Shown in pieces: positions 232 through 64,000 of a DNA stretch of 64,000 bases. The notes under the pieces are model-generated. The model made no database searches. It worked only from the letters and a program-made list of their open reading frames with translations, and was not told where the DNA came from. Source of the DNA: Antedon mediterranea (lineage: Eukaryota; Animalia; Echinodermata); contig NC_092679.1 in assembly GCF_964355755.1 (NCBI RefSeq), forward strand, positions 20,257,432 to 20,321,431, read 5' to 3'. Both the position numbers and the translations under genes were made by a program. How positions within the stretch are numbered: the first letter of the stretch is position 1; each line of letters opens with the position of its first letter.

Positions 232-429
232 GTAATCACTCTTACTTGATGTTTTTTAATTAAAAGAATTATTTCCTAACTGGTGTAGGCATTCAATCAG
301 TACCTGGGGAATGTCCTCTCCTATAATATAGTGAAAATGATTACGTCTTCAAAGTTAATTATTTCAGAAATTAAAGTAGAAAAAGAGGTACTTCAGACAG
401 AAAATGACCTTGGTGTATTTCCTGATTAC

Positions 430-630
430 GTAATTTCCGCCAGGTGTTTCTAATGAAGGTCGTTCATTTCCTGTTATTGTAATAGTTATGTAACTTCCGC
501 CAGGTGTTTCTAATGAAGGTCGTTCTTTTCCTGTTATTGTAATAGTTATGTAATTTCCGCCAGGTGTTTCTAATGAAGGTCGTTCTTTTCCTGGTTTCGT
601 ACTAGTTATGTAATTTCCGCCAGGTGTTTC
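430..630. repeat. Subterminal 60-bp tandem repeat (~3.3 units), mirrored at ~13754-13954
   Basis: gtaatttccgccaggtgtttctaatgaaggtcgttc...tagttat recurs at a 60-nt period on consecutive lines. Confidence 0.95.
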
Positions 631-801
631 TTTGTCTCTTATTTATTATTTTTTCGGCGCGAGGTTCTGGTACGTGGTGAGTGACGTCATTACTTTATTT
701 ATGATTTAAGACGGTGAAACAAAGTGAAGCGGTTATTGTTGTACTATTCTCCAGTTGTTTTGTCTATTTTTGCGTAGAGTATCTCTTTACAGTATTTTAT
801 T

Positions 802-1356
802 ATGTCTGGAAGTATATATTTTTCGCAAGGGAGTTGTGAAGATACTGTTATAATAATTAGCGATGACGAGGAGACTGTTGTTGTTCCAGGCAGTGATATA
901 GATGATCGTTACACGGAGGCCGAAGAGGTTATCCCCGTCGGTATAGATGAAGGAGTCGAGAGGAATAACAGGCCTACAAGTTGTATATTCACGTACGTGG
1001 ACGAGGTGGAGAGAGAATTTTTGTTGAAAATGGAGCGTTTGGTTAAACAATTGTTTGCTGCTCAAGTGTTAGCCAAGTGTTGGGTTTTAAGTAAAGCGGC
1101 ATGTTATGGTTGTGAATTTGACAGGAGCAGTCAAAAAGATCATGATTTCTGTTGTATGAAGTCTCTAGAAGAACAGATTGACTATTTTTATCGGGAGGTT
1201 CTGGATAAGAAGTATGTTTCAGTCGATACCGTTTACAACGAACTAAATATGCACGGGGAATATTCATTGCCTCGGTATAGACATTTCGTTTATTTTCTTG
1301 TCAATACCCTGATTAATTCAGAGACTATTTTTAAGCTGTTGTGCGAGGATATTTAA
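802..1356 (+). CDS. 184-aa element-borne protein with acidic N-terminus, SIM-like motif and Cys/His cluster
   Basis: Intact ORF with the same protein in both arms; motifs VIIISDDEE and CYGCEFDRSSQKDHDFCC. Confidence 0.7.
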   Translation: MSGSIYFSQGSCEDTVIIISDDEETVVVPGSDIDDRYTEAEEVIPVGIDEGVERNNRPTSCIFTYVDEVEREFLLKMERLVKQLFAAQVLAKCWVLSKAACYGCEFDRSSQKDHDFCCMKSLEEQIDYFYREVLDKKYVSVDTVYNELNMHGEYSLPRYRHFVYFLVNTLINSETIFKLLCEDI

Positions 1357-1515
1357 ATTGTGTTTCGCACGTGTCACGGAAACGATTGACCGGAAATAAC
1401 AATCATTATCTTTTTAATTACTGTACTGGGCTACTTCCCTACTGAGCTGCATATATATCCTGACTCAAGCGTAATCGTTCGTTTCACTCTCTGTAACTCT
1501 CTACAGTCTATAAAC

Positions 1516-3354
1516 ATGAGTTTCAACTGTTTACCTACTCCGAAATTAGCAATTGGTGAGAAAGCCCGTAGGACTATGAAAAGAGTTATGGGGAGTTCTA
1601 ATGGTCAAGCTGACGAGTGTAGCAGTTTAAAATTACCAACGATGGCTTCTACATCAGCGAATATAATGGATTCTATAAAATCTTTTAACGGTCAAACAGA
1701 TGAGTGTAAAGGTTTGAGTAAAGCCTCAGGAATGAGCGCCCGAGATTTTGCCGTAATGACCGATGGTGTACCAAAGATTTCCATAACTTCAAAGAATCGG
1801 ATTTTCTTGTCTGAAAAACGCCATGTAGTGGCCCAACGATGGGGTGACGATGTTTATGTTTGTCTCAGAGAGTATTACCAAACGGAAGAATATGGTGCCT
1901 TCAAACCTGGACCTCTAGGTATTAATTTACCCGTTCTGCTGTGGCAAAAACTTTTCAACAATATTGATTTAATTATTCAGGCACTGGAAGACTTACAAAG
2001 AGACATTAACATGGTGGAGGCAGTAAGAATCCCACTTTCGGACATAATTCATGTGGTAGTTAGTAACTGGAAAGAAGAACAATTTGTGTGTATTCGCCGC
2101 TATTACCAGTCAGAAGAAGGAGGCAAGTTTAAACCCGGTAAAAAAGGTGTAAACCTTCCAAAGAGTCAGTGGTTCAAGATAATTGAAAAACACGGTGAAA
2201 TACAAAAGATGATTGAGGAGGTTGGTAATGATAATGCGGCTACTGTTGAAGCGGGTGTTGACAAAAACGGTAATGGAGGACGTTTATTCAATTCAGAACA
2301 TCAATTGCTACCTCCTGATAAGTTATCGGTGCAAAAGATAATAGGGGAAAATTTAGACTGTGATTACCTTCAACTTCTTGATAAAGGAGCAGCCGATACC
2401 TTGTTTAAAAGATGTGAGGAAGAGATTGACTATTTTACCGGTGATCTTGCAAAGGTGAAAGTGTACGGAAAGTGGTTTAATATTTCTAGAAAACAGGTTA
2501 GTTCCATTATGTTTTTATCCGTGGTTTTGTATTAATGACTTGTTAATTACTTGTATATCGTTTCCTTTGTTTTTCTTTATTTACCGCTGTGTAGCTATAG
2601 GTGTAATTTACTCTTTTACTGTAAATTATTTTATTTAGGCGTGTTCATTTACATCTCACCAAATAATAAATGACTTTCTTTGTATGGTTTCCTCTCTGCA
2701 GGTTTCGTTTGGCGATTCGGGCTTAACTTACAAATATTCAGGCAATACAGTACCAGCTTTACCGTGGCCACCATTCCTGAAAGATCTCCGCGACCTTTTA
2801 AAATCGGTTACAGGACATTACTTCAATTTTGTTTTGGTCAACCGGTAAATATTCTTGTTTATTATTTTATTTATTTATTTTATTTATTGATTAAAAGGGT
2901 CCATCGTTTACCTCTAAAACGAATGAACACTATCAGTATTCATACTGGATGATTTCTGCAATTTGCTAGATAAGATTGTTTTAATGGATAATTGGGTTTT
3001 TTTAGTCTCATCTTAAAATATTTTATTTTCTATTGTATTTTGTCGTTACTCTATAGATATGCTACTGGAAGTGATTACATTGGCGAACACAAAGATGATG
3101 AGAAAGACATGAATCAGTTTAGTCCAATCGCCTCTGTATCATTGGGGCAGACACGTATGTTTAGATTTCGACATGGTGATGCGCGAGGTAAGAGTCCCAA
3201 AAGAATCATTGAGCCAGTAACTGTTGATCTTAAACACGGTACATTATTAATGATGAATTATCCCACTAATGAGTACTGGTACCATTCACTGCCTAAAAAT
3301 CAATCCATCAAGCTACCAAGAATAAATCTCACGTTTAGAGATATTAAAAGATGA
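1516..3354 (+). CDS. PC4-PC4-ALKBH2-like fusion, 473 aa; exons 1516-2496, 2702-2844, 3057-3354
   Basis: Two PC4/Sub1-like repeats (VYVCLREYY...FKPGPLGINLP..W and FVCIRRYY...FKPGKKGVNLP..W). GT-AG splicing joins RKQ|VSFGDSGLTYKYSG...FNFVLVNR|YATGSDYIGEHKDDE...WYHSLP...RINLTFR, which resembles ALKBH2 and keeps HxD, the distal H and the RxxxxxR motif. Total 1422 nt, in frame. Confidence 0.9.
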
Positions 3355-6300
3355 GAGAAATGTTATGCAAACATTACAGTCTTTAATAGTGATTGCAGAT
3401 CTCAAGAATATCAACTGTTCATGATCTGTTCTCATTTAGTATAGTAGTACCAGTTGAATTATTTTTGTGATGATATTCCTAAAAATGGTTGTATTATTGT
3501 ATTGAAGTTAATTCACTTAGATCTAGGCCTAATTCCATTGATCGTTAATAATCATGTGATTGTTTGTCATTGTGTGGATAATGATTAACTTTACGAATAA
3601 TTTCTTAAAAGTAACTTGTAATGTATTTCTAATTGTTAAATACAATTTTTTATGTTTTTAATAAGTGTGTAAGTTTTTCTTTAAAGCGTTTTAATCGTAA
3701 TTTCAAGAGTAATAGGTGCTTGTAACGTTTGAAACGGACTGGTAGATAAAACAAAACAAAAACAAAAACAAAACCCGTTATAATAACACTAATAATAGCA
3801 CATATTTTCGTACATGTATCAATGATTTAACTAAAAAAGTGTGATTAATATTATTACAATAAAGACCATGTAGATCTACGATATTTTTACTGTAAGTGGT
3901 ATTGTAAATCAAATTATGAATTCAATCGTGAGAAATGACCGATATCTGTGTATTATTTTATATTACTTTTATCATAATTGCAACAAAAAAAAACTCAAAG
4001 AAATCATAATTATCGAATACAGAAAGACGTTTTGGTTACCAATTGTATTTCTTGACACTTAACACATTTTAACAGAAAACAAGACCTTCAACCGGAGCCA
4101 AAAATTGAAATTTGTTTACGTGAAGGTTATTGCCATTAGATATTCTTAGAACTACTTTGGTTTTTATAAATATTGTAACTTTTTTCTTAGACGTTTATCT
4201 ACCGAGATTTTTTTTCCTTTTTATGAATCTTCTGCTGTTCCTAAGCATTTTTAATTTTTTACAGGCCTTGTTCTTCGCTTTGCAGGCTAAATCTTATAAC
4301 GGCATAGGCCTGCATTTTAACGGTTCTTTGTAAATATCCTCTTATTGATTGTTAACTATAGTTCTCTGAATGTTTTAATTTACCGTAGATGATGAAAAAA
4401 TCCCTTAATCTAGCACCATTTTATAAAAAAGATTCCGCAGTAAATGGTTTATTTTTTATGGTATTGATGGAATCATCGAGGCACAATATTAGGCTGAAAA
4501 ACATGACGTCACTGTTTTAAACGGTTTATCATACAAGAACAATTAACCAATCACAAAACTGAGCTACTGATTTGCGTAAAAGTTTCTGGAAATGACAAAT
4601 TAAGGAAACACGTACACATTAATAAATATATATTAATTTTTATATAAATAATAGACAAAACAAAAGGAAATACACCAAACAAATCATTTTCGTTATGAAT
4701 TTATAATAACTTTAAATTTCGTCCATCACAGGAGACGCGTTTAGCGTTTTCCAATTGTAAAACAGTTTCGCATTGCGTCGCAACACATGCACATACTGCA
4801 AGTACCGTACCGTACTGTAACAAGTCTACTGATATGTATTTTGTTGGTCACTCATCATTTTAGCCAACACATTATTTAACTCATAAGGTGTAATATCTTT
4901 TCACAAATCCTTTATATCTTTACTTTTTATTGACAACTCATAACAAACAAGAACAGTACTCTGAATGAGTGTGGGAGAGGTGTGTGGGAGTCCCATTCAA
5001 CCAAACCTTGCCAATTTGTACTCGACCTACGATAAAACCATTTTTTAAAAGTCAACATAGCGACACGAGAAAACAATTGATAATAGGGATAAAAAGTTTT
5101 TCTTGCATTGTTATACAGTAACCTATGTTTTTCGGGTGTTTACACCATCTCATTGTTTATAATTACGTTTGTTAATATCGATAGTGTTTCTCTAGCAGAG
5201 TTATATTACTTGTTTATACTCGTATAGTTTGCAGTCCTCCATGTTGTTCGTATATTTTGTAAAAAGTGTACTTATGATTACTTTTAAAAACCAACTCATT
5301 TTATTTGCATTTTATCTACACCTCATGGTTAAAATGTCTTGTTTTTCATAGAGTGTGATGCTGCTTAAAACGTTATACTAGTATAACCACCAAAACGGTT
5401 TATTATCTGTAGGAAATCATCAATTGTAACATGCGGTAAACAATACAAATTAGTTTCACAAATTATTAAAAAATAGCACAATTGTTACAAATGAATTTAA
5501 GAAAATAAAGGTGTACAGATTTTATTTCGAAAAAGTGTAGGCCTAGACCTACAAAGATAATTTTACATGAAGTGTACAGAATAAATTAACAAAAAAAAGG
5601 TCACACATACATTAAACTAATTCTTATAAAAGTGTAGTGTACTTCGGTTATCAGGTATATCAACTTTAGTATTTTAAGTATAGGGCCTATTTGTGGCAAA
5701 CACACGGTCCCTTTTAATTGTGGGTAGAGGCCTTTTGCCGTTCGTAATTCAAACTGTTCGTAAAATTGAAGTTAATATTCTGAGATTAGGCCTATAGCCT
5801 ATGATTGCAGCTTATACTAGTCAACGGTCTAAAAGAGCTGTATTGCAGGATGCGAAACATAAAAGTTCATTAATAAACAGTATATTATAACGATAAAGAA
5901 ACGAATGTACGATACACCAATATAGCAATACAATAACTGATTAACTGAAAACTTGAAGTCTACTGTATTCCTACAATCATTCAAGTAGACATTGTTTGCT
6001 GAGTGTATGGTACTTTCTCCAAAGAGAATTCGAACGATGTGCTTTCGAACGTGTTTCTACGGTTATCAGAACGGGTCGATAATGAAAAAAAAACAAACCA
6101 AAACAAACAAACTGCCTACTAACTCCCAAAAAAAATCAATACCTATAAATAAGCTGAACCTACCCCACTAAATAATCTCTTCCATACATCAAAATCGACC
6201 GAAAATGATCTGGACATTGAAAAGTGGACACGGTCGTCTGTTCTTCTTTTTTGTTTCCACGGCTTGGGACGACATCCCTGTTAGTGATGTACGGTAGCCA

Positions 6301-6703
6301 TGCGGTCTACACACTTATGATGACCACATCGCATAACATGTTCAGGGAACTTATTTTTCAACTCTCTGATACAATATTTAAATACAAGTAGACTGGAAAC
6401 CATTTAGGAACAGGGGTTTCTAATAATAAAAGTTGTTTAAAACTTTAGTTATTGTCAAGGGGAATTGTTCAAGACTTGGAGTAAAAATGGTCAAGACCGG
6501 GGGAAAATGGTCAAGACCGGAAGAAAATTAAATTTCACCATTTTATAAGTTTATAGTCATTTATTGTGTTAAAATTCATTTATTATTAGACCTGTATACG
6601 TATTCAATAACAAAAAATAACTTTGTTACATTAATAACATATCTTTAGTGGTTAAGGTAATATATTATTTCTCTGTATACTGACGTCACAAATATAGATA
6701 AAG

Positions 6704-7003
6704 AGAGACTGTAACTAAATGTTTATTACTTATTAGGGTTACAGGGAGAGTTCCATGCAGCATTAAAAGGTCAATTAATGAGCCACCCAACTTAATTAAT
6801 TAAGTGCCGGTACTTAACAAATGTGCTCAAACTCAATAAGGGTTACAAATCTACAAGAGACTGTAACTAAATGTTTATTACTTATTAGGGTTACAGGGAG
6901 AGTTCCATGCAACATTAAAAGGTCAACTAATGAGCCACCCAACTTAATTAAGTACCGGTACTTAACAAATGTGCTCAAACTCAATAAGGGTTACAAATCT
7001 ACA
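6704..7003. repeat. ~150-bp tandem duplication near the palindrome centre (mirrored ~7380-7679)
   Basis: agagactgtaactaaatgtttattac...ggttacaaatctaca occurs at 6704 and again at 6856. Confidence 0.9.
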
Positions 7004-7158
7004 AAAGAGGATATTTTATTTTAAAACTAGGTTTAATAATTAAAAGGTTAATTACTTGAACTCTGAACATGGGAAAAAAGACTTGTGTCAATTGACACTT
7101 GAACTTGACCTCTATACAAGGACGAATAGACTGTGACAATTAACCATGACCTCTGGTC

Positions 7159-7224
7159 AGCCGTTTTATTGGGGGGGCTCTCAAATTTCGACGAAGTCGA
7201 AAACTGAAACCCCCATGCTTTTGG
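7159..7224. other. Central spacer of the palindrome; imperfect hairpin with a GAA triloop
   Basis: TTTCGAC-GAA-GTCGAAA (7186-7202), flanked by TCA/TGA and by G-run (7171-7177) / C-run (7210-7214) pairing. Confidence 0.85.
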
Positions 7225-10200
7225 GACCAGAGGTCATGGTTAATTGTCACAGTCTATTCGTCCTTGTATAGAGGTCAAGTTCAAGTGTCAATTGACACAA
7301 GTCTTTTTTCCCATGTTCAGAGTTCAAGTAATTAACCTTTTAATTATTAAACCTAGTTTAAAAATAAAATATCCTCTTTTGTAGATTTGTAACCCTTATT
7401 GAGTTTGAGCACATTTGTTAAGTACCGGTACTTAATTAAGTTGGGTGGCTCATTAGTTGACCTTTTAATGTTGCATGGAACTCTCCCTGTAACCCTAATA
7501 AGTAATAAACATTTATTTACAGTCTCTTGTAGATTTGTAACCCTTATTGAGTTTGAGCACATTTGTTAAGTACCGGCACTTAATTAATTAAGTTGGGTGG
7601 CTCATTAATTGACCTTTTAATGCTGCATGGAACTCTCCCTGTAACCCTAATAAGTAATAAACATTTAGTTACAGTCTCTCTTTATCTATATTTGTGACGT
7701 CAGTATACAGAGAAATAATATATTACCTTAACCACTAAAGATATGTTATTAATGTAACAAAGTTATTTTTTGTTATTGAATACGTATACAGGTCTAATAA
7801 TAAATGAATTTTAACACAATAAATGACTATAAACTTATAAAATGGTGAAATTTAATTTTCTTCCGGTCTTGACCATTTTCCCCCGGTCTTGACCATTCTT
7901 ACTCCAAGTCTTGAACAATTCCCCTTGACAATAACTAAAGTTTTAAACAACTTTTATTATTAGAAACCCCTGTTCCTAAATGGTTTCCAGTCTACTTGTA
8001 TTTAAATATTGTATCAGAGAGTTGAAAAATAAGTTCCCTGAACATGTTATGCGATGTGGTCATCATAAGTGTGTAGACCGCATGGCTACCGTACATCACT
8101 AACAGGGATGTCGTCCCAAGCCGTGGAAACAGAAAAGAAGAACAGACGACCGTGTCCACTTTTCAATGTCCAGATCATTTTCGGTCGATTTTGATGTATG
8201 GAAGAGATTATTTAGTGGGGTAGGTTCAGCTTATTTATAGGTATTGATTTTTTTTGGGAGTTAGTAGGCAGTTTGTTTGTTTTGGTTTGTTTTTTTTTCA
8301 TTATCGACCCGTTCTGATAACCGTAGAAACACGTCCGAAAGCACATCGTTCGAATTCTCTTTGGAGAAAGTACCATACACTCAGCAAACAATGTCTACTT
8401 GAATGATTGTAGGAATACAGTAGACTTCAAGTTTTCAGTTAATCAGTTATTGTATTGCTATATTGGTGTATCGTACATTCGTTTCTTTATCGTTATAATA
8501 TACTGTTTATTAATGAACTTTTATGTTTCGCATCCTGCAATACAGCTCTTTTAGACCGTTGACTAGTATAAGCTGCAATCATAGGCTATAGGCCTAATCT
8601 CAGAATATTAACTTCAATTTTACGAACAGTTTGAATTACGAACGGCAAAAGGCCTCTACCCACAATTAAAAGGGACCGTGTGTTTGCCACAAATAGGCCC
8701 TATACTTAAAATACTAAAGTTGATATACCTGATAACCGAAGTACACTACACTTTTATAAGAATTAGTTTAATGTATGTGTGACCTTTTTTTTGTTAATTT
8801 ATTCTGTACACTTCATGTAAAATTATCTTTGTAGGTCTAGGCCTACACTTTTTCGAAATAAAATCTGTACACCTTTATTTTCTTAAATTCATTTGTAACA
8901 ATTGTGCTATTTTTTAATAATTTGTGAAACTAATTTGTATTGTTTACCGCATGTTACAATTGATGATTTCCTACAGATAATAAACCGTTTTGGTGGTTAT
9001 ACTAGTATAACGTTTTAAGCAGCATCACACTCTATGAAAAACAAGACATTTTAACCATGAGGTGTAGATAAAATGCAAATAAAATGAGTTGGTTTTTAAA
9101 AGTAATCATAAGTACACTTTTTACAAAATATACGAACAACATGGAGGACTGCAAACTATACGAGTATAAACAAGTAATATAACTCTGCTAGAGAAACACT
9201 ATCGATATTAACAAACGTAATTATAAACAATGAGATGGTGTAAACACCCGAAAAACATAGGTTACTGTATAACAATGCAAGAAAAACTTTTTATCCCTAT
9301 TATCAATTGTTTTCTCGTGTCGCTATGTTGACTTTTAAAAAATGGTTTTATTGTAGGTCGAGTACAAATTGGCAAGGTTTGGTTGAATGGGACTCCCACA
9401 CACCTCTCCCACACTCATTCAGAGTACTGTTCTTGTTTGTTATGAGTTGTCAATAAAAAGTAAAGATATAAAGGATTTGTGAAAAGATATTACACCTTAT
9501 GAGTTAAATAATGTGTTGGCTAAAATGATGAGTGACCAACAAAATACATATCAGTAGACTTGTTACAGTACGGTACGGTACTTGCAGTATGTGCATGTGT
9601 TGCGACGCAATGCGAAACTGTTTTACAATTGGAAAACGCTAAACGCGTCTCCTGTGATGGACGAAATTTAAAGTTATTATAAATTCATAACGAAAATGAT
9701 TTGTTTGGTGTATTTCCTTTTGTTTTGTCTATTATTTATATAAAAATTAATATATATTTATTAATGTGTACGTGTTTCCTTAATTTGTCATTTCCAGAAA
9801 CTTTTACGCAAATCAGTAGCTCAGTTTTGTGATTGGTTAATTGTTCTTGTATGATAAACCGTTTAAAACAGTGACGTCATGTTTTTCAGCCTAATATTGT
9901 GCCTCGATGATTCCATCAATACCATAAAAAATAAACCATTTACTGCGGAATCTTTTTTATAAAATGGTGCTAGATTAAGGGATTTTTTCATCATCTACGG
10001 TAAATTAAAACATTCAGAGAACTATAGTTAACAATCAATAAGAGGATATTTACAAAGAACCGTTAAAATGTAGGCCTATGCCGTTATAAGATTTAGCCTG
10101 CAAAGCGAAGAACAAGGCCTGTAAAAAATTAAAAATGCTTAGGAACAGCGGAAGATTCATAAAAAGGAAAAAAAAATCTCGGTAGATAAACGTCTAAGAA

Positions 10201-11029
10201 AAAAGTTACAATATTTATAAAAACCAAAGTAGTTCTAAGAATATCTAATGGCAATAACCTTCACGTAAACAAATTTCAATTTTTGGCTCCGGTTGAAGGT
10301 CTTGTTTTCTGTTAAAATGTGTTAAGTGTCAAGAAATACAATTGGTAACCAAAACGTCTTTCTGTATTCGATAATTATGATTTCTTTGAGTTTTTTTTTG
10401 TTGCAATTATGATAAAAGTAATATAAAATAATACACAGATATCGGTCATTTCTCACGATTGAATTCATAATTTGATTTACAATACCACTTACAGTAAAAA
10501 TATCGTAGATCTACATGGTCTTTATTGTAATAATATTAATCACACTTTTTTAGTTAAATCATTGATACATGTACGAAAATATGTGCTATTATTAGTGTTA
10601 TTATAACGGGTTTTGTTTTTGTTTTTGTTTTGTTTTATCTACCAGTCCGTTTCAAACGTTACAAGCACCTATTACTCTTGAAATTACGATTAAAACGCTT
10701 TAAAGAAAAACTTACACACTTATTAAAAACATAAAAAATTGTATTTAACAATTAGAAATACATTACAAGTTACTTTTAAGAAATTATTCGTAAAGTTAAT
10801 CATTATCCACACAATGACAAACAATCACATGATTATTAACGATCAATGGAATTAGGCCTAGATCTAAGTGAATTAACTTCAATACAATAATACAATCATT
10901 TTTAGGAATATCATCACAAAAATAATTCAACTGGTACTACTATACTAAATGAGAACAGATCATGAACAGTTGATATTCTTGAGATCTGCAATCACTATTA
11001 AAGACTGTAATGTTTGCATAACATTTCTC

Positions 11030-12868
11030 TCATCTTTTAATATCTCTAAACGTGAGATTTATTCTTGGTAGCTTGATGGATTGATTTTTAGGCAGTGAAT
11101 GGTACCAGTACTCATTAGTGGGATAATTCATCATTAATAATGTACCGTGTTTAAGATCAACAGTTACTGGCTCAATGATTCTTTTGGGACTCTTACCTCG
11201 CGCATCACCATGTCGAAATCTAAACATACGTGTCTGCCCCAATGATACAGAGGCGATTGGACTAAACTGATTCATGTCTTTCTCATCATCTTTGTGTTCG
11301 CCAATGTAATCACTTCCAGTAGCATATCTATAGAGTAACGACAAAATACAATAGAAAATAAAATATTTTAAGATGAGACTAAAAAAACCCAATTATCCAT
11401 TAAAACAATCTTATCTAGCAAATTGCAGAAATCATCCAGTATGAATACTGATAGTGTTCATTCGTTTTAGAGGTAAACGATGGACCCTTTTAATCAATAA
11501 ATAAAATAAATAAATAAAATAATAAACAAGAATATTTACCGGTTGACCAAAACAAAATTGAAGTAATGTCCTGTAACCGATTTTAAAAGGTCGCGGAGAT
11601 CTTTCAGGAATGGTGGCCACGGTAAAGCTGGTACTGTATTGCCTGAATATTTGTAAGTTAAGCCCGAATCGCCAAACGAAACCTGCAGAGAGGAAACCAT
11701 ACAAAGAAAGTCATTTATTATTTGGTGAGATGTAAATGAACACGCCTAAATAAAATAATTTACAGTAAAAGAGTAAATTACACCTATAGCTACACAGCGG
11801 TAAATAAAGAAAAACAAAGGAAACGATATACAAGTAATTAACAAGTCATTAATACAAAACCACGGATAAAAACATAATGGAACTAACCTGTTTTCTAGAA
11901 ATATTAAACCACTTTCCGTACACTTTCACCTTTGCAAGATCACCGGTAAAATAGTCAATCTCTTCCTCACATCTTTTAAACAATGTATCGGCTGCTCCTT
12001 TATCAAGAAGTTGAAGGTAATCACAGTCTAAATTTTCCCCTATTATCTTTTGCACCGATAACTTATCAGGAGGTAGCAATTGATGTTCTGAATTGAATAA
12101 ACGTCCTCCATTACCGTTTTTGTCAACACCCGCTTCAACAGTAGCCGCATTATCATTACCAACCTCCTCAATCATCTTTTGTATTTCACCGTGTTTTTCA
12201 ATTATCTTGAACCACTGACTCTTTGGAAGGTTTACACCTTTTTTACCGGGTTTAAACTTGCCTCCTTCTTCTGACTGGTAATAGCGGCGAATACACACAA
12301 ATTGTTCTTCTTTCCAGTTACTAACTACCACATGAATTATGTCCGAAAGTGGGATTCTTACTGCCTCCACCATGTTAATGTCTCTTTGTAAGTCTTCCAG
12401 TGCCTGAATAATTAAATCAATATTGTTGAAAAGTTTTTGCCACAGCAGAACGGGTAAATTAATACCTAGAGGTCCAGGTTTGAAGGCACCATATTCTTCC
12501 GTTTGGTAATACTCTCTGAGACAAACATAAACATCGTCACCCCATCGTTGGGCCACTACATGGCGTTTTTCAGACAAGAAAATCCGATTCTTTGAAGTTA
12601 TGGAAATCTTTGGTACACCATCGGTCATTACGGCAAAATCTCGGGTGCTCATTCCTGAGGCTTTACTCAAACCTTTACACTCATCTGTTTGACCGTTAAA
12701 AGATTTTATAGAATCCATTATATTCGCTGATGTAGAAGCCATCGTTGGTAATTTTAAACTGCTACACTCGTCAGCTTGACCATTAGAACTCCCCATAAAT
12801 CTTTTCATAGTCCTACGGGCTTTCTCACCAATTGCTAATTTCGGAGTAGGTAAACAGTTGAAACTCAT
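11030..12868 (-). CDS. Second copy of the PC4-PC4-ALKBH2-like fusion; exons 12868-11888, 11682-11540, 11327-11030
   Basis: Mirror of 1516-3354. It differs by a V/F and an A/T substitution in the N-terminal region and by a synonymous change. Confidence 0.9.
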
Positions 12869-13027
12869 GTTTATAGACTGTAGAGAGTTACAGAGAGTAA
12901 AACGAACGATTACGCTTGAGTCAGGATATATATGCAGCTCAGTAGGGAAGTAGCCCAGTACAGTAATTAAAAAGATAATGATTGTTATTTCCGGTCAATC
13001 GTTTCCGTGACACGTGCGAAACACAAT

Positions 13028-13582
13028 TTAAATATCCTCGCACAACAGCTTAAAAATAGTCTCTGAATTAATCAAGGTATTGACAAGAAAATAAACGAAA
13101 TGTCTATACCGAGGCAATGAATATTCCCCGTGCATATTTAGTTCGTTGTAAACGGTATCGACTGAAACATACTTCTTATCCAGAACCTCCCGATAAAAAT
13201 AGTCAATCTGTTCTTCTAGAGACTTCATACAACAGAAATCATGATCTTTTTGACTGCTCCTGTCAAATTCACAACCATAACATGCCGCTTTACTTAAAAC
13301 CCAACACTTGGCTAACACTTGAGCAGCAAACAATTGTTTAACCAAACGCTCCATTTTCAACAAAAATTCTCTCTCCACCTCGTCCACGTACGTGAATATA
13401 CAACTTGTAGGCCTGTTATTCCTCTCGACTCCTTCATCTATACCGACGGGGATAACCTCTTCGGCCTCCGTGTAACGATCATCTATATCACTGCCTGGAA
13501 CAACAACAGTCTCCTCGTCATCGCTAATTATTATAACAGTATCTTCACAACTCCCTTGCGAAAAATATATACTTCCAGACAT
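13028..13582 (-). CDS. Second copy of the 184-aa Cys/His protein
   Basis: Identical translation to 802-1356. Confidence 0.7.
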   Translation of the reverse strand: MSGSIYFSQGSCEDTVIIISDDEETVVVPGSDIDDRYTEAEEVIPVGIDEGVERNNRPTSCIFTYVDEVEREFLLKMERLVKQLFAAQVLAKCWVLSKAACYGCEFDRSSQKDHDFCCMKSLEEQIDYFYREVLDKKYVSVDTVYNELNMHGEYSLPRYRHFVYFLVNTLINSETIFKLLCEDI

Positions 13583-14095
13583 AATGAAATACTGTAAAGA
13601 GATACTCTACGCAAAAATAGACAAAACAACTGGAGAATAGTACAACAATAACCGCTTCACTTTGTTTCACCGTCTTAAATCATAAATAAAGTAATGACGT
13701 CACTCACCACGTACCAGAACCTCGCGCCGAAAAAATAATAAATAAGAGACAAAGAAACACCTGGCGGAAATTACATAACTAGTACGAAACCAGGAAAAGA
13801 ACGACCTTCATTAGAAACACCTGGCGGAAATTACATAACTATTACAATAACAGGAAAAGAACGACCTTCATTAGAAACACCTGGCGGAAGTTACATAACT
13901 ATTACAATAACAGGAAATGAACGACCTTCATTAGAAACACCTGGCGGAAATTACGTAATCAGGAAATACACCAAGGTCATTTTCTGTCTGAAGTACCTCT
14001 TTTTCTACTAATTAATGTTATGGAAATTGTATAATTCTTATTTTATCAATGAATGATACTTAATACTAATTACATTTGTCGTATTTTTTCCACAG

Positions 14096-14209: not shown

Positions 14210-15985
14210 AGGAAAACGCATAGGATCGGGGTTTGGAATGCACAATCTATCTCAATAAAACAACTCCTTTTTTGTTGACCACGTTATTTTTGTCCCAGAA
14301 ACATGGCTTTGTGAGAATGATACAGCTCGAATCTCTGCTTGTAAACCAGATCGTTTTACATTTTTATTCATTTCCTCATCTGGGTAAAAGAGGTGGTGGT
14401 ATCGGAGTTTTATCATGTAAAAGTAATTTCAGTACCTTTGACCCGGTCACTGATGATTTACTTAATGTCATTAGGTCAGCCTCCATTACCTCTTGCTCCC
14501 TGGATCCGCTTCCTCTTAAATTATTTAAGACTTGTCTTCCTACCCTTCTTCCCTTCTTTACCAAAGTTGTCAACACCTCACTGAGCTTAGGTATCTTTTC
14601 ATCTTCACTCAAACATGCCTGCATAACACCATTGTTAAAGAAGCCATCTCTGGATACTGAAGAATTTGCAAGTTACAGACCCATTTCCAATCTTCCATTT
14701 CTTGGAAAAATTATTGAAAGGGTTTTTTCCAGTCAGCTGCAATCATATTTGAATAGCAATGGCTTATTTGCCACTAGACAATCCGCCTATCGGCCAAACC
14801 ATAGTGTAGAATCTGCTCTTCTTCTTGTGCATAATGATATTAGCATTGCACTTGATAACCATAATGAGGTTCTTATGGTCCTTTTGGACTTCAGTACTGC
14901 TTTTGACACCATCAACCATAAGCAGTTATTAAATCGTCTATCATCACGTTACGGTATCTCTGAAATCTGTCATAATTGGTTTGCATCATATCTAAATGAT
15001 AGGTCCCAGTCAATTGTCATCAAGGATGTTTTGTCGAACCCGACTCTGCTTACAGTAGGTGTTCCACAAGGGTCTGTGATTGGTCCTCTTCTGTTTATTT
15101 TATTTACCGCCCCACTACTTGACCTCATTGAATCTCACAATGTGAAGTGTATGGCGTATGCTGATGACACTCAGCTTTATGTCATTTTCAACCCTAATCA
15201 GCGTGATTCTGCTGTCAGTAAAATTTGAATCCTGTATTTCCGAAGTTCGAGCATGGTGTCTATCTAACAACCTAGTTATGAATGATGCTAAAACAGAACT
15301 TATTCATTTTTCTTCTCGTTTTAAGCCTGCCTGTTGGACTGCATCTGTTAAGAGTGGTAATTCTTTCATTCAACCTTCGTCATCCTGTAGAAACTTTGGA
15401 GTTGTCACGCTATTCGTAAAATTGGAAGCATTCGGAAGTACCTGGATTCAAGATCAACTGAGATGCTTGTTTTCGCATTTGTTACATCAAGGCTAGACTG
15501 TTGTAACTCATTACTTTATAGCTTACCAGCTAATGATATCTCTAAAATTCAGCGAGTTCAGAACACAGCTGCCCGATTGATCGTTCAAAGCCCCACAAGG
15601 CAACATATCACACCTGTGCTGAGACAACTTCATTGGCTTCCAGTAACACAAAGAATTACCTTCAAGATCCTGCTTTTTGTTTTCAAAGCTCTTCATAATT
15701 CTTCATCTAAGTTCATTTCTGGACTTATTCAATCTTATGTTCCTAAGCGGTCTCTGAGATCAGGATCAGAGTCTCTTCTTGCCCATTTTGTTCATCCGTC
15801 CACTAAGTTATTTCTCTTTGGAATGCGTTGCCTATTGACATCTGTCAGGCAACTTCCACCAGTGTCTTCAAATCTCTCCTCAAATCCCACCTTTTGAATT
15901 TTTAATTTTCTAAACGTTCCTGTCAATGTAAAGCGCATTGAGGCTTTCAGCATAATGCGCTATATCAGGTACCAGTTATTATTAA
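14210..15985 (+). mobile_element. Degenerate L2/CR1-group non-LTR retrotransposon: internally deleted ORF2 with RT and 3' tail
   Basis: RT motifs YRPISNL, QSAYR, LLDFSTAFDT, GVPQGSVIGP, YADD; C-terminal SRLDCCNSLL and HWLPV; frameshifted; 3' stem-loop aaagcgcattg...aatgcgct followed by a tta-rich tail. Confidence 0.85.
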
Positions 15986-15999
15986 TATTATTTTAAGGC

Positions 16000-18570
16000 T
16001 TGCGAGTCAAAGATTAGTATTCCATCCATCCATAAAAACATCGTAATCGTTATTGTTTATAGACCCCCTCCCGCCTCGACAGCTCAATTCACTGCATATT
16101 TTTCAAAACTTGTTGAAGAACAATACTCTTTATATGCTAATCTCATTATCACCGGCGACTTTAATATCCACGTTGATAAGACTGATGATTCTCATACCAA
16201 ACGCTTTATGGACATATTGGATTCTACCAATTTCGTGCAATTGGTCAAACTACGCCCACACAAAAGCATGGACATACACTTGACCTTTTAATTACCAATA
16301 ACCCCAATTTAATTGTACATTCACACATACATCAATATAATGTCTGGTCACTATTTTCTCCACGCCTTACTTAATGTCTCTAAACCATCAATGCAATAAC
16401 ACAAAAGAAAATTAGGCCTACATTCCGTTGTTTTAAGAATATCAACACCATTGATTTAAAATCGAAATTGTCTGATGGCTTTAGCGATTTCCTTGCTGAA
16501 TCTTGTGATGTTAGTTCAAACTCTCTGCTGTATCTTTTTACAATCAATTTTTATTCTCCTTTTTTTTATCTTTCGTGGGAATCACCCATCTTTATTGTAA
16601 TTTCTTCTCATTTTCAATGTATAATACTATAAATAATTCTGTCATTCTTAAAACGATATAGATAAATATTTGGCATAAAGGTAAATAGACTCTATACAGA
16701 TGAAGCTATAATAGAACCATTGATGAAATATTTAGTGATACATTATACATATTGTATATTTAAAATTGTACTGTGCAGGTAGATTAAAATATTGCATATA
16801 TTAAAACAGTGGATAAAATAAAATCAAGGTAAATTCTCTAAAATGCTAGTTTTTATATTTTTCCATTTTTTGTCTTCTTTAATAAATCGCATCCGTATTC
16901 ATTTGTAATTAAGGACTTCAATTCAACAAATTCCATATCACTTCATGTTTTTTCTAATTTTTCCAAAATGCATGATTTGTGAATGCAAAATGTGAATAAT
17001 GAAATAAGTTCATTTACAACTATGTTTCGTGTACCTGTTATTATTTTATACCAATTGATAGTACCTTCTTTTGGAAAACACTTAAATACGAGGTCATTAA
17101 ATGTAAACCATACATTTTGAATTGCTGTACATTCAACTAGCATATGTAATTCACATTCAATTTCTTTTTTTACACCTGTCTACTATTTTCCAATCTTTAA
17201 GCCTTTTTTTACAAGGTAACATGTTGTGTAGTAATTTAAAATTAAATTGTGCAATTCTATTATGTGCTTAAAGTTGTGTATTTTATTTGTCCATACTTCA
17301 TACCAATCTAGTTCAGCATTATTAAAGACTACTTCCAATTTTGCCTCTGCAATGAAATTGGGATTTACAAAATGCCTATAATAAAATTGACATTTGTTCT
17401 CTTTTCGGAACAATTGTGTTCACTTGTTCGTCATCGTATTGGTCTCTCGCTATAGATTCTTTCCATTCAATGATGTATGGCATTAATAAGCACCATGTAT
17501 TCTATTAGACCATTTTTTCTTTTGGATAGAGTTGGTATTAATACATCAGGTGCTATTATTCTGTTATTTACTATAATATCATTAATTACTTTATATCCAG
17601 AATGTAACCATGTTTCAAAATATATTGATTTTCCATTAGTTGTAATATACCTATTTTCCCGCAATTGTTGTTTTTTAATTTCTGCTACATTTATTGGATG
17701 TCGACCTAACATATTTTAACGTTTCTACATAGAAGTCTGATAAAGAATTTTTATTCTCGCTTCGAGACGAGTTGGCTCCCGAGAAATCAAAGATCATTAA
17801 CATCAGGTGAAGATCTCAGTGGTTCTCTGATGATTGTAGAATTTCCAAGAGAAAGTGTCGCATTCTTGAACGCAAATGGGTAAAGAATCCATCATCTGAA
17901 AATCTATTAGCTTTAAAGAAACAATGCACAGCATACCACATAAACTACTGCACGGTACAAGAACAACTTACATGCAGTCCAAAATTGATGGCTGTGGTTC
18001 TGACCAACGTCGATTTTTTCACATTATGAACAAACTTCTTGGTAAAGGAAAAGATGGTTCATTTCCAACTGCTGTGTCTGACTTGCAACTTGCCAATGAC
18101 TTTAACATCTTCTTTCGTGACAAGGTTGTTAATCTCAGGAAGTCATTTGGTGATATACCATGCCCACATCAAATTCCTCAGCAGCTGGATTCAGAACGTT
18201 CATCAAACTCACCCACACTTTGCAACTTCACCGTAGTCACTGACGATGTAATTCACAAGCTAATAATGAACATCAAAGCTCTTGATCCATTTCCAACACA
18301 GTATTTCCAGTATTTAGAATTATTATTAATTTATCTTTATCAACTGGTACTTTTCTTGGGTCTTGTTACACTTATTTTAAAGAAGCCTTCATTGGATCAT
18401 ACTTCCATAGCAAATTTTCGACCTATTTCTAATGTTGCTTTCTTGTCCAAGATCCTTGAGAAATGCGTTTCCTTAGATCTCATCCATTTTCTTGACGGCA
18501 ATGTTCGACCCTCTTCAATCAGCATATAGAAAGCACCACAGGAGAGAGTCAGCCATTCTTAAGGTGCAAA
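16000..18570 (+). mobile_element. Second degenerate L2/CR1-group LINE fragment (APE, linker, start of RT), interrupted by a Tx1/L1-like fragment
   Basis: APE-like IVIVYRP and IITGDFNIHVD at ~16040-16175; linker/RT text NDFNIFFRDKV and NFRPISNVAFLSKILEK at 17924-18529. Confidence 0.7.
16560..17720 (-). mobile_element. 3' fragment of an L1/Tx1-like retrotransposon
   Basis: Broken ORFs (ENRYITTNGKSIYFETWLHSG; LDWYEVW) resemble the C-terminus of the Tx1 ORF2 copies elsewhere in the window. Confidence 0.65.
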
Positions 18571-24695: not shown

Positions 24696-27675
24696 CTACT
24701 AAATGTATAAAGTAAACTATGCAATTTATTCCAAGTGAATCAAGTGAGGATTCTCAATAAATAAATAAAATATACAATATACAATATTTGATAAGACAGT
24801 GCAATTGAGAAAAGAGTATGTTGATAATGTGGTCAGTGCATGGTAATATTGGGCTTGGCCCATCTCATCTGACCAATTAAGATTAAGAGAATTAATGTGG
24901 TTTACTTGAAATCCATTAGCTAGAAAAGTGAAGGTAACCTGTCAATGTGAGGTTAAATAAAAAGATATATACAGGATGTATAAATAATCAAATTAAAAGT
25001 AAATGTTAAAATGCAAACCCCAAAGCACGTCTGGGAGAATAGAGTCTATGAAAACATTTCCTGATAGATACAGTATTATTGAGATGCATGTAGACGGTAA
25101 TCTGTAAAATCTTGTTCAATGAATAATGACTTTGTTCTTGCTGTCAGTCTAGGCCGGTATTATCATAATTCACTGTCAAATAATCAAAACTTTATTTTGG
25201 CTGTATTTACAATGACTCCCATTTGACTGTCAATCTAGGCCGATATTATAATACTGTCAGATAATCATTAAATTATGATCAAAACAGTCAATAATAAAGT
25301 TTTTGTTTGTAATAGGATACAATTTGTTCACACTTGAATGTCCCATTTATCACTTGTTGACATCTAGGCTTGATGAAGTGACCCCCAGACTTGACCTTAG
25401 CAATAAATAAACTAAAATGACAGAAATTTAGTCTGTTTAGTGGTCTAAAATTGGCTTTAATATATATTATTTAGACATCATTTTTATTTAATTTATTCAA
25501 TAAGCACATCATCTTTTACAGATTCAGTATTATGACATATCAAAGTATTAATTCTTGTTGTATTTTAGTTCAAATACAAAAGTTATTCACTTCCTTCAAA
25601 AAAAAATTATTATTCATTTATAAAAAGAGAAAAGAAACCATTGTCTGACAGACAATTTAAGTATTTTTTGCTTTAAATTACATTTTTTCTGGTAAATACT
25701 TTTTTGGTTAAAGTGAATAAGTATTTTGTGACAAAAAAAAAATTCAGGGGGGACAATATATCTTTAAAACTAAGAAATATTTCTTGTTTTTATTTTATGT
25801 CTTTGGCACATGTGGCCAAGAATTACCAATAGTAAATCATGAAGTTATAAACTCCATGATACCATACTGTACACCGCACCAAAGCCAACTGTGCACAAGC
25901 TTGCATGTTTCAGTCCATCACATGGGTGGGGGGCTGCAGGATACAGTCCAACAGTCGTACAAAACGTACTACAGTCGTACAAAACAAGAAATAAGGCCAT
26001 GGCCTAACTTGGCTTGGAGTCATTGGTCAACTAGGTCTACTTGACCTGGCTTGGCTAGCCTACTATTTTAGGCCTAGGCTTAGTCTAACTAGCTAGAGTA
26101 GGGCTAGCCTAGCTAGGCTAGGCCTAAAAAATCGGACAGAAAATGTGGAGTTATTTACCTGTATTTCACTAATACAAATCTAACAAGCAATTATAGTCAA
26201 CAAAATATTGATAATAAGTGACAAAGTATCATTTTAAAGTTAATATTGTGCCTTAAAAGGGGTTATTTGATTGTCAATTGGCTGTGTTTACAAAGGGCTG
26301 TCACATACGGGATGCTGACTGGAAGAAAGAGCATGCTGCAGGGATGACAGCACATGTTTTTCCACTGTATTGCATTTTTTTTCTAATATAATAATGCGTA
26401 TAGGTTATACTGTAGATATTAAAAAACCTTAGGCCTACTTAATATGAATGAATGCGCTGCTTGCACAGCATTTATTGTCAAATATATAAAATATTTAAAA
26501 TGTGAAGTTTGTACACAGACAAGGCTCTTAAAATTATAAAAAACATCAAAAAACACGATAATGAAAAAACACATCAAAAGAATAATATAATTCCTGTACG
26601 ATGTTTTCTAATTTAATTATACAAAAATAAAACAAGTTTTAACAAAATGTCCATGTCAAAGGAGAAAATAAATTGTTAAACGTATTGCAATTAAACTCCA
26701 GTCGTTCTGACGGTTTGACAGGCTCGTCCATTGTACTAAATAGGTAACATACCTTTTTCTTACAATTTTCAAAGTTAATAATTGCTCTATTGTTAGTCAA
26801 CTGAAACTGTTGTTAGTTGATATAATTAATGTTATTCTGTTACTATTTGCAGCATTTTTTTTAAAGTACCAGTTTATGTGTAATTGTTTATTTCATTCTG
26901 TAAAACTGGTTAATTAAGCAAGATTAGCTGATAAGAACGAAATGAACTAATATTAAATAGGCCAAAACCCCCCAACACATTTCTGTTTATAAGGGAATTA
27001 TACTAAATGGACAAAAAATGAATAAAATATAAAGTAGTATACCCAATGGACGGGCACCTTGATAAATTAAGTGCATACATGTTCTATAAATGGATATATA
27101 ATGTGTATATGAAACGTCATTTATATCCTGGATTTATAAAGCGCTTTATATTGTGAAATCTATATGTAAGCCCTGATAATACAGTAGAAACTGAGGGAAA
27201 CCAAAATCGAAGTATGGTGATACGCCCTGGCGGTAACTCTGGAATCTCTCTGTGAAAGGCTGGATACATAACCATTACACTCGCATTCACATGGTTGTGG
27301 TGAAATTAGCTTAATCACACACAGCATTAAGACAGAATGAAAAAAGTTGTAAATATTTTCCCGAAAAATCTTATGTAGACCTAGAGGAATTTTACAGTAG
27401 GTGGAGGTATGCACTCTCGGAGTGCCGTTTAGTTGTTATTATAAAAGCCTTTTACCCACTGTTGAATACTGTAGGTTATTGTTGCTAGTTGACTATTTAA
27501 AGCTGCATTATACACGAACGAGCACTTACAAAACACAAATCATACGAAGGCCATATCGTATTGTTACATGTTTTCTTTATGTTCATGGGAAATATTTCCA
27601 ATTTGTATTCAAACCGATCCATGCATGCTCTTCCGTGTTCGATATTGAATAGTTAATTTTGTACAGTAAGATAGC

Positions 27676-30600
27676 ATGGATACCAGCTTACGTGTATTTC
27701 GACCAAATGATATCAAAATCAAGAATACTCTGGGAGGTAATGATAAATTCAATGTTTTCATTGGAATTGTAAAAGATACTGGAAAGTTAGTAGTTGTGAA
27801 GAATGTTACGATTGGCGAACATAAACGGGAGTTAGATGTATTGAAGAATCTACGACACAAAAATGTTATCCGACTGTTGGGGACTATTGAGCAAGAACTG
27901 TCCACGTCAACGGGGTTAGTGCTTGAATATGCACCCAATGGTAGCCTATATGAGTTCTTACATAAGAAGCCTAGAACTCATTTCGATTACTTAGATTGGT
28001 GCAAACAGGCCGTAAGTTCGGTCGTGTATATTCACGATAAAGAAATATCGCATAGAGATATAAAATCTAAGAATTATTTAGTGTTTGGAGCTGTTATCAA
28101 GTTAACCGATTTCGGCTTGTCAAAATTCCTAAAGGACGGTAACTCGCGAAATGTACGCGGTACGATTCTCTGGATGTCTCCTGAAGTCCTGACGGAAGCT
28201 GAAGATGTGGATTATTTTAAATCAGATATATACTCCTTAGGAGTAGTCTTATGGGAATTGTATCACCAGAGAAAACCCTACCAACAAGTAAGTATTCTAA
28301 GCGTCCTGCAACATGTCATTCACAATAAAGGTCATCCAGAAATTGATGATTCATGTGACGTACGCTTGCGTGATGTGATGCTGAATTGCTGGAATTACCA
28401 ACCAGATCAAAGACCAAATGCAGAGCAGATTCTGACGTCACTTGATAACGTACCTGAAACATTGGTCAGAAGCAGTTCGAGGGAAAAAGAGAAACAAATA
28501 CATAGAGTACGGATAGTATATTGCTTCTTGTATTTTAATGTTTAATTCTAGTGTACGTCAACATCTTAACAGATTTAACATGCATTCTTTTAATTTCTGC
28601 CTCATCGATAACTATAAATATTAGGCAGATCCGTATACATGAGTTTGCTCAAACTCTCTATTCTTAATAGTTCAGTGTCGTCATACATTTAGTATATGTT
28701 TAGATTTTGAAATAGGTCTAATCATTAATACCTGCAATACAGTACAATTACATCATTTTTGTAAATACATCAATATAATTTTGTAATGGTAATATGCTCA
28801 TCTTTTTCCATTAATTGATGAATTTTATATTTGCAGGAAGAAGATCAGACCGCATTTCAACATTTGCTAGCAAACCTCAGCAAAGATTATGCTGGTAATA
28901 AATACCGTTGGTTAAGAATGCTTCTACATGATATTATACCAAGTGGAGATTTAGAATATAGCACTACAGGGCTTGACTTATTTAATAAACTTGTTGACAT
29001 CGGAAAGATTTCAATTACTGATGTCACCCTCTTGTCAGATGTTGCTGAAACCACCGAACAGACATCGGCAAAAGATCGTATTGCCGAATATAAAAGGACT
29101 GTACAATGCAGTGAAACATTAGGAACAAAATTAACATCATATCGAAGGGCACTTTTTGAAGCCCTCATGAATGTTGGGCATGATGATTTACTTAAGGTCA
29201 TTGGTTTCTATACACTTAAGCACCATGGCTTTGACAATATATGGGATGTTGTCTTTCACCTTGAGCAACAGGAACTATTAATTGATACCCAAGAAAAGTG
29301 TAAACGGTTTGCAGATCTTCTGAACAAAAAGACAGGGAGGATTTTACTAGGTAAATCTTGATAATTATAATTATACATTTCTGGTTATATATAATAATAC
29401 TATTAGAATCAAATTTGGTGGAAGAATTTTTCAATTCTGAATTTACTCGAATGTTAGAATAGATGTCATAATGTAAATGTCTTCTTTTCCCACAGCTGCT
29501 TCTAAGACCCTACTAAGGTAAGAACACTTTACCAAAACGGATAAAAATAAGATAACTCGAGATTTTAACATTTTTTCGGACGTAACGAATTGATTGATTT
29601 TTCTGATAATCATTAGGCATGATGGTCTGTTAGTATAAGTTATTCACAAAATTCAGGACGATAAACATACATGTAAAGCTAGTAGCCATAATATTAGGGT
29701 TTGACAAAATGCTTGTGGCGAATGAATATGATTTGATTTCAAAAGTTTAAAGTTAATTATAATTGCCCTTTGAAACTGGGATTTAATAAATAGTATGTAT
29801 TAGTTTACCAAGCCTGAAATCAACACATCATTTATTTAACAAGCTAATCGATGTCAGTGATAAAACTTTACAAATTTAGAGATGCAACCTGTATGCCTTC
29901 TCTTCAACAATCCGAAGTAACTTTACAACCTGTAACAGCTTCTTTTCTCGAACCAAATGCGAAGATAACGACTGAAACATTTGTCAGTAGTAGTGCCAGG
30001 GAGAAAAAGAAGCACTTACCAGTATACAGAGTAAGGATAGTATAAACCATCTTGCATTGTACGCTTAGTGAAGTAAAACATTTCTCAGAAGTAATGTTCT
30101 TTTAAATGAATAATGATAATAATAACTTGTTTGAAGGTTTGCATGGCGAAATCAAATGTTTGCGGTACACCACGTATATTAATTCTGAAAAGAACTGTTG
30201 AGAAAGTCTTTCTGCATTCTCACTCCTGAGGACGATCAAAGCATATTGATCGAAACGTCGAGAAACTCAACAGTTCTTTTCAGAACTACAGTAATATACG
30301 TGGTTTACCGCAAACTTTATATCAACGATAGTAGTAACAACAATAATATACTAATAATAGAAGATATCTTTATTTTTTTAGATCTATTTGTCAAAGACAC
30401 TGGTTATTGTTATCGCTATTGTTATTTTGATTGCAAGCGTATATGTACAATTACAAACCACCACAGCGCCTCCTAAAAATTGGCTAGCAGAAGCGATGAA
30501 ACGAATGAGGGAAAATCATCTTGAAAAAAACAAAGGAGGGACGGTAAGGCTAACATTTAGATGATTGTACTTCTGACTGGATTATTATTATTATTCATGG

Positions 30601-63927: not shown

Positions 63928-64000
63928 GTAAGGATAGTAGTTGTTTTCTTTATTTAAGGTATAGAAGACGGTACGTCAAAATCTTAACGAATTGAACATG

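Follow-up and report, generated by a model that had tools for sequence, protein, structure and literature searches.

We describe a gene in the crinoid Antedon mediterranea that joins two PC4-like domains to an ALKBH2-type dioxygenase in a single protein and that is carried by a long palindromic element resembling the Polinton/Maverick group. The gene occupies positions 1516 to 3354 of a stretch of 64,000 nucleotides (contig NC_092679.1 of assembly GCF_964355755.1, positions 20,257,432 to 20,321,431 of the forward strand), which we call the window and to which all coordinates refer. It is real, intact, lineage-specific and mobile, and on its Polinton-like palindrome it brings together domains of known kinds in a combination that is new. 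The PC4-PC4-ALKBH2 architecture was found only in the Antedon lineage, and there only on this element. Enzymes of the ALKBH2 clade reverse 1-methyladenine (1-meA) and 3-methylcytosine (3-meC or 3mC), lesions that form mainly in single-stranded DNA (ssDNA). We propose a reading to which we give about an even chance, namely that the fusion is the element's own tethered repair enzyme for its unpaired DNA, binding it via the PC4 dimer and repairing 1-meA and 3-meC. The gene is organized as follows.

1516 to 2496, plus strand: exon 1, amino acids 1-327, with a leader, two PC4 repeats, a linker and the first 57 amino acids of the AlkB domain
1780 to 1995, plus strand: PC4 repeat 1, amino acids 89-160; equivalents of R70, F77 (as W), R86 and W89 (as Y) kept, R100/K101 pair lost
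2011 to 2223, plus strand: PC4 repeat 2, amino acids 166-236; equivalents of F77 (as W), R86, W89 (as Y) and R100/K101 (as KK) kept, R70 lost
2497 to 2701, plus strand: intron 1, GT..AG, phase 0, within the AlkB domain
2702 to 2844, plus strand: exon 2, AlkB F2 hairpin to FVLVN-R
2845 to 3056, plus strand: intron 2, GT..AG, phase 2, identical in the RefSeq model
3057 to 3354, plus strand: exon 3, with H386, D388, H451, R463, R469 and the stop
11030 to 12868, minus strand: mirror copy of the gene, intact, two amino acids different

A sequence-only reading of this DNA had posited a three-exon frame of 473 amino acids with two PC4-like domains and an ALKBH2-like domain, and both statements are borne out. 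The spliced gene comprises 1422 nt (473 codons and a stop, with no internal stop), and the RefSeq protein XP_071962887.1 of A. mediterranea, annotated as an 'uncharacterized protein', equals its product at 473/473 residues. Exon 1 matches Pfam PC4 (PF02229) in two stretches above the cut-off (83.1 bits, E 9.5e-24), while 2OG-FeII_Oxy_2 is matched by exon 3 (E 1.7e-19) and weakly by exon 2 (E 0.012). A single exon, read in a single open frame, encodes the two PC4 repeats together with the first 57 residues of AlkB, and so the fusion is present at the DNA level, independently of any splice prediction. The likely join point of the two parts is in the linker, near residue 255. Of the sequencing runs in which we traced the gene, X2, X3 and X5 derive from one sample and are DNA, and X1 is only guessed to be RNA. 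One X1 contig joins the last 19 bases of exon 1, with one difference, directly to exon 2 and is thus the intron 1 spliced form of some family member; the junction 2844/3057 was not seen among the X1 matches listed.

The sequence-only reading had not recognised the domain combination from cellular genes, and the architecture search agrees. Both Pfam domains occurred together in three of 112 matches to the full protein and in three of ten matches to exon 1, all of them from Antedon. Conversely, the ALKBH2 profile hit none of the 148 non-Antedon PC4 proteins among the matches listed, and the PC4 profile hit none of 112 unfused ALKBH2-type proteins, which represent one length class. The host's own ALKBH2 is free of PC4, as are those of other animals, so the case in which the canonical enzyme carries the same fusion did not arise. 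We found no description of a PC4-AlkB fusion in the Polinton, adintovirus and AlkB-capture literature, a search that covered sources other than subscription journals and Repbase, and the accessible text of PMC11662393, PMC3597677, PMC6431247 and PMC5499653 does not mention it.

The AlkB half is of the ALKBH2 type. Human ALKBH2 structures in the PDB match residues 271-471 with no gap (E 8.8e-71, with ALKBH3 at only 1.5e-22), and the AlkB part of the full-length AlphaFold model has a pLDDT (predicted local distance difference test) of ~90. The iron triad H386-x-D388...H451 aligns with human H171, D173 and H236, and the 2-oxoglutarate (2OG) motif R463-INLTF-R469 with the C-terminal arginines of human ALKBH2, so that HxD...H and RINLTFR are intact. 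Catalytic residues are likewise kept in all seven other element-type rows that reach the C-terminus intact. The F1 wedge is preserved as V314, V316, Y317 and G318 (human V99, V101, F102 changed to Y, and G103), the F-to-Y change being found in sea urchin orthologues too; the F2 aromatics Y337 and Y339 are present, and the hydrophobic network for repair of double-stranded DNA (dsDNA) is mostly kept (Y122, F124 as Y, L129 as V, and L157). Two features deviate, in that L127 is replaced in all crinoid ALKBH2 copies, fused or unfused, and the RKK motif, which we take to grip the complementary strand, is absent from fused and unfused crinoid copies; sea urchins and most vertebrates have it.

In a tree of 33 ALKBH2 rows, which contained no ALKBH3 row, ten element-type domains fall into a 14-row crinoid clade (support 100/99) together with three unfused Antedon proteins and one Anneissia protein, the inner branch order of which is not resolved; the stem of this clade is long (0.51). 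The element-type domains are 82-83% identical to unfused Antedon ALKBH2, 73% to Anneissia and 54-65% to the other 19 rows. Hence, the AlkB half was apparently taken from a crinoid host. The unfused Antedon gene has an intron at the same place as the fusion, its isoforms P0008/P0024 differing by a segment that ends at the intron 1 site, and this match suggests capture of genomic DNA; an origin as a retrocopy was rejected because introns are present. It should be noted that Antedon also has duplicates of the unfused ALKBH2 gene (P0006, P0023, P0008/P0024). The long crinoid stem (P0006, P0023, P0008, P0024, P0028) and the loss of RKK form a lineage shift that predates the capture.

The PC4 half is predicted to be a single-chain pseudo-dimer, as the sequence-only reading had suggested. 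With a deeper alignment AlphaFold gives residues 86-240 as one unit (pLDDT 94, predicted template modelling score 0.88), while in the full-length model, with its shallow alignment, the PC4 part falls below a pLDDT of 50; the repeats are predicted to be joined to AlkB by a flexible linker. Each half of the modelled tandem matches PC4/MoSub1 structures, and its best whole-length match among solved structures is Pur-alpha repeats I-II (Z 11.2, root mean square deviation 3.6 Å, 129 residues aligned), which represent the intramolecular-dimer type of PC4-like domain (PMC7549692). In such type I domains (Pur-alpha I-II, Whirly, MRP1/2) two beta4-alpha repeats pair within one chain, as is predicted here; the fusion differs in that its repeats are of the PC4/Sub1 rather than the PUR type (6% identity to Pur-alpha) and are joined to an enzyme. 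Human PC4 contacts ssDNA through R70, F77, R86, W89, R100 and K101 (PMC4350104), of which repeat 1 keeps 4/6 and repeat 2 keeps 5/6 if W is accepted in place of F77, Y in place of W89 and K in place of R100.

A HMMER search with PC4 gave 212 matches, the best 150 of which were listed. The closest relatives among those listed are stand-alone genes, five from Anneissia japonica, with P0131 a tandem, and three others, and the leader and the DENDNG tail before the join near residue 255 are common to the fusion and these stand-alone relatives. Hence, the fusion can be dated between two crinoids, Anneissia with stand-alone PC4 genes and Antedon with the fusion. Among viral structures, the best match of the tandem model is MOSUB of a Branchiostoma lancelet adintovirus (E 2e-7, TMq 0.80, 22% identity), and a second adintovirus MOSUB ranks 41st; MOSUB stands beside an inverted terminal repeat in a supplementary map of PMC8502044, the layout of which was read by machine. 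Several further architectures were observed among the PC4 proteins. Among P0132-P0205 are many proteins with three or four PC4 repeats, to which DEK_C is frequently added, and the two of these that carry a species name come from green algae; P0197, P0202 and P0204 combine a Z-alpha domain with two PC4 repeats; and P0190, P0249, P0251, P0269 and P0272 have a tandem PC4 followed by a Cys/His-rich tail and may be related to adintovirus MOSUB.

Because the whole carrier element is one palindrome, the two arms of which are 99.8% identical (15 mismatches and one indel over 6782 aligned bases), it contains the gene twice. The element has the following parts.

375 to 14009, no strand: whole element, a 13,635-bp palindrome with two ~6.78 kb arms and ends AGTAGA...TCTACT
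369 to 374, plus strand: left target-site duplication AATTAA, 6 bp
14010 to 14015, plus strand: right target-site duplication AATTAA, 6 bp
426 to 631, plus strand: subterminal 60-bp tandem repeat, 3.4 copies, mirrored at 13753-13958
802 to 1356, plus strand: open reading frame (ORF) 1, 184 amino acids, acidic N-terminus, CYGC...SQ..H..C motif, mirrored at 13028-13582 on the minus strand
6704 to 7008, plus strand: 152-bp tandem pair near the centre, mirrored at 7375-7679
7159 to 7224, no strand: 66-nt centre, asymmetric, in which 7186-7202 form an inner 7-bp stem closed by a GAA loop, a candidate turnaround hairpin

Only two ORFs per arm exceed 140 amino acids, and each arm has 3.8 kb without a recognisable gene. 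Pfam searches of 22 short frames of 3448-7139 gave no match above the cut-off, no Rfam match was obtained in 300-7400, and neither a polymerase nor an integrase nor a capsid ORF was found in the element by ORF and Pfam scans. ORF1 belongs to no Pfam family, had no homologue among 49 candidates, and its atlas matches were all below 0.9; its CYGC...SQ..H..C motif may bind metal and is presumably that of invertebrate Polinton-associated ORFs. The inner hairpin, which lies exactly at the centre, has a loop of the type C(GAA)G; such loops have unusual stability as ssDNA, in keeping with a turnaround of replication. Intact vertebrate Mavericks have 6-bp target-site duplications, (AGT)2 or (AG)3 ends and terminal inverted repeats of 46-1447 bp (PMC8097293). 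With its Maverick-like ends and none of the core genes, the element is quite probably a non-autonomous fold-back derivative of a Polinton/Maverick. A parvovirus-like or Helitron reading was rejected, there being no Rep/NS1 ORF and a target-site duplication being present, as was a TTAA-specific transposon, the duplication being 6 bp and other flanks differing.

The claim that the fusion is mobile is upheld by the 6-bp AATTAA duplication, the AGTAGA/TCTACT ends and the finding of other flanks at the shared terminus 374/375, in three, five and three contigs of X2, X3 and X5, respectively, and in none of X1, with no fixed motif at the ends of these other-insertion flanks. When the element and one duplication are removed, the flanks line up across the junction with a paralogous gene for a kinase with a death-effector domain (DED; ~29.4 kb), along its intron and into the exon that follows, in an AT-rich alignment that is without a shuffle control. 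RefSeq contains 17 related Antedon proteins on seven sequences of different length; most copies are 95-99% alike and the element family is young. Comparison with the subfamily of P0022 gives 198/205 identical residues in the AlkB domain, 71/80 and 59/72 in the PC4 repeats, 23/31 in the linker and 19/42 in the leader, a pattern that fits purifying selection and also recent exchange. The 21 coding variants that were classified, a best-supported subset, come mostly from the linker. Seventeen DNA differences from other copies were taken from the 40 best-supported rows, at sites where the whole depth or nearly so carried the other letter, and 15 of them occur in both arms. The five residues that, in a set of 15 paralogues, belong to this locus alone are likewise all in both arms, and so the arms were equalised after this copy had diverged, whether through copying across the centre or through in-place conversion.

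Based on these data we put forward a hypothetical mechanism for the fusion and its element. A PC4 gene already on the element family would have captured a genomic ALKBH2 with its introns, the join falling near residue 255. The protein-primed polymerase of a helper would copy the element in trans from the open end to the central hairpin, and copying through the hairpin would re-make two matching arms, after which the helper's integrase would insert the product. Strand-displacement copying of this kind would expose up to ~6.8 kb of single strand, on which 1-meA and 3-meC would arise most easily and would block polymerases, and the PC4 unit, acting as the element's ssDNA binder, would hold the dioxygenase on the exposed strand. 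A single-stranded racket intermediate has been proposed for Polinton copying (PMC4196379), and 3mC stalls replication (PMC9246332). We hold only tentatively, and lean somewhat against, the fuller statement that a fold-back satellite of an animal Polinton fused its own single-strand binder to a captured repair enzyme that rides on the displaced strand.

The sequence-only reading had the tandem PC4 redirect to ssDNA an enzyme that prefers dsDNA. Against this stands human ABH2, which demethylates single- and double-stranded DNA efficiently and whose F1 wedge decides the use of dsDNA (PMC2965238). What survives of that proposal is localisation, which fits the present data; the change of specificity is weakened. 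Since ssDNA is already a substrate of the human enzyme and the wedge for dsDNA has been preserved here, we consider it more likely that PC4 adds location and not chemistry, being a tether rather than a specificity switch. The accompanying suggestion that the enzyme removes methyl marks imposed by the host is not supported, given the 1-meA/3-meC substrates of the clade and an element without CpG depletion. Indeed, the sole link found to host methyltransferases is their off-target 3mC damage (PMC9246332), and erasure of 5-methylcytosine was rejected, as the accessible text of the papers cited does not name it as a substrate for the ALKBH2 clade.

Several observations weigh against the proposal of a tethered repair enzyme and must be set beside it. 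The ssDNA activity of ABH2 together with the kept dsDNA wedge leaves the need for a tether in doubt. Both repeats are without some DNA-contacting basic residues and are near neutral (K+R 8 and 12 versus D+E 9 and 10), asymmetric type I PC4-like domains bind one strand only (PMC7549692), and ssDNA binding by this tandem, judged from its residues, may be one-sided or weak. In the palindrome, moreover, the displaced strand would snap back into a duplex as soon as copying had gone beyond the centre, shortening the exposure of ssDNA. No transcript spanning PC4 and AlkB was seen, the spliced X1 contig stopping short of PC4; of the 17 Antedon models, three begin only at Met232 and so lack PC4, and a number of the rest are truncated; and this copy, which has a private substitution at the otherwise near-invariant residue 324, may be weaker than its family. 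Recombination that spread the domain recently could account for the high AlkB identity, and in-place conversion for the likeness of the arms. Descent of the tandem from MOSUB is also questioned. Identities of 29/66 and 43/74 (44-58%) between the two crinoid repeats point to local duplication, tandem PC4 proteins are common in algae, and the structure library that yielded the MOSUB match held viral proteins only, which limits any claim of descent. As for the element, AGTAGA//TCTACT agrees with the (AGT)2 motif at five of six bases, the motif list being a vertebrate one, its arms are far longer than the 46-1447 bp repeats of intact Mavericks, and scans with PC4, ORF1, P0154 and one further alignment found no related locus in viral or metagenome contigs.

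Other explanations of the fusion were considered. One holds that it is passive cargo, an ALKBH2 captured in frame by chance and copied with a successful young element to which it is useless. The likeness of most copies in a young family agrees with this, as do the truncated, deleted or AlkB-only models P0002, P0003, P0004, P0011, P0014, P0015, P0020 and P0021. We nevertheless regard it as unlikely, because between subfamilies AlkB is 97% identical while the leader is at 45% and the linker at 74%, the catalytic residues have been kept in every other intact row, and the frame is open across the join, with a spliced form in X1. Alternatively, the protein might work on duplexes, PC4 melting or holding bubbles, hairpins or transcribed DNA while AlkB repairs the integrated or duplex element, including off-target 3mC made by DNA methyltransferases (DNMTs). 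PC4-like domains do unwind duplex DNA (PMC7549692), DNMTs make 3mC and co-evolve with ALKB2 (PMC9246332), and of the features needed for dsDNA both the F1 wedge and the greater part of the hydrophobic network are retained. This idea has to contend with the missing RKK and the replaced L127, although both apply to all crinoid copies, fused or not, and with a CpG observed/expected ratio of 0.80-1.16 in the element versus 0.49 in an adjacent CR1 copy, so that heavy long-term methylation is not evident; on balance it seems distinctly unlikely.

Selection might instead act through the animal, the element raising the dosage of alkylation repair in its host. The duplication of unfused ALKBH2 in Antedon would suit such an explanation, and the long crinoid stem hints at changed selection on the enzyme, but the element in which the gene resides has fresh ends and has inserted at many sites, the copy described here lies within another gene's intron, and no domesticated single locus was seen, which makes benefit to the host quite improbable. 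A technical explanation, that the palindrome and the doubled gene are an assembly fold-back artefact, could appeal to the near-identity of the arms and to the fact that no contig spans a whole arm. Against it stand the exact 6-bp duplication, the 15 differences between the arms, the non-palindromic 66-nt centre, the rejoining of the flanks along the paralogue, contigs that bridge the left junction without difference, and coverage of the centre in four of four runs. We judge an artefact scarcely credible, and the PC4-ALKBH2 fusion stands either way.

Comparison with known systems shows what is shared and what is new. Human and animal ALKBH2 resemble the fusion in clade, fold, metal ligands, 2OG arginines and the F1 and F2 hairpins; the fusion adds the N-terminal tandem PC4 and is multicopy on a mobile element, its lack of RKK being common to all crinoid copies examined. 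Polintons/Mavericks and adintoviruses (PMC8097293, PMC8502044) share with the element the 6-bp duplication, the AG...CT ends and a PC4-fold gene near the terminus, whereas the element is one whole palindrome without a polymerase, integrase, ATPase, protease or capsid gene, and its fusion gene has introns while intact Maverick genes are intronless. No AlkB was found in the accessible text or readable supplement of the adintovirus paper (PMC8502044). AlkB domains have been captured by an orchid Ty3/Gypsy element and by plant RNA viruses as cited there (PMC9289625), and by giant DNA viruses (PMC10598087). In those cases, as here, a host-type dioxygenase is proposed to protect the captor's own nucleic acid; as described in the accessible text, they involve ALKBH5/9-like RNA demethylases or other AlkB clades; none is of the ALKBH2 type or joined to PC4, and none sits on a DNA transposon of an animal. 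That AlkB capture has already been described for RNA viruses, giant viruses and a retrotransposon of orchids limits the surprise of the present case. If the proposed mechanism is true, PC4/MOSUB would be the single-strand binder of Polintons, and the DNA transposons and virus-like elements of animals would be under selection from alkylation damage; if the tether works, the protein would be a natural single-chain device for bringing a direct-reversal repair enzyme to ssDNA. One small protein thereby makes testable both the role of the Polinton PC4/MOSUB accessory gene and whether Polinton copying involves long-lived single strands.

Other features were noted in the window. At least three kinase-DED paralogues were recognized by Pfam (1-263, 27670-29361 and 63559-64000), the element sitting in an intron of the first of them (1-263). 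A frame of 484 amino acids at 41018-42472 has no Pfam match and, by its motifs, may be transposase-like. CR1/L2-like reverse-transcriptase fragments and an ORF1-like frame were assigned by eye at 14224-15897, 17900-18529 and 61619-62770. Finally, two copies of an L1/Tx1-like retrotransposon, 99% identical, lie at 33016-39501 and 48228-52669, inverted around tandem-repeat arrays.

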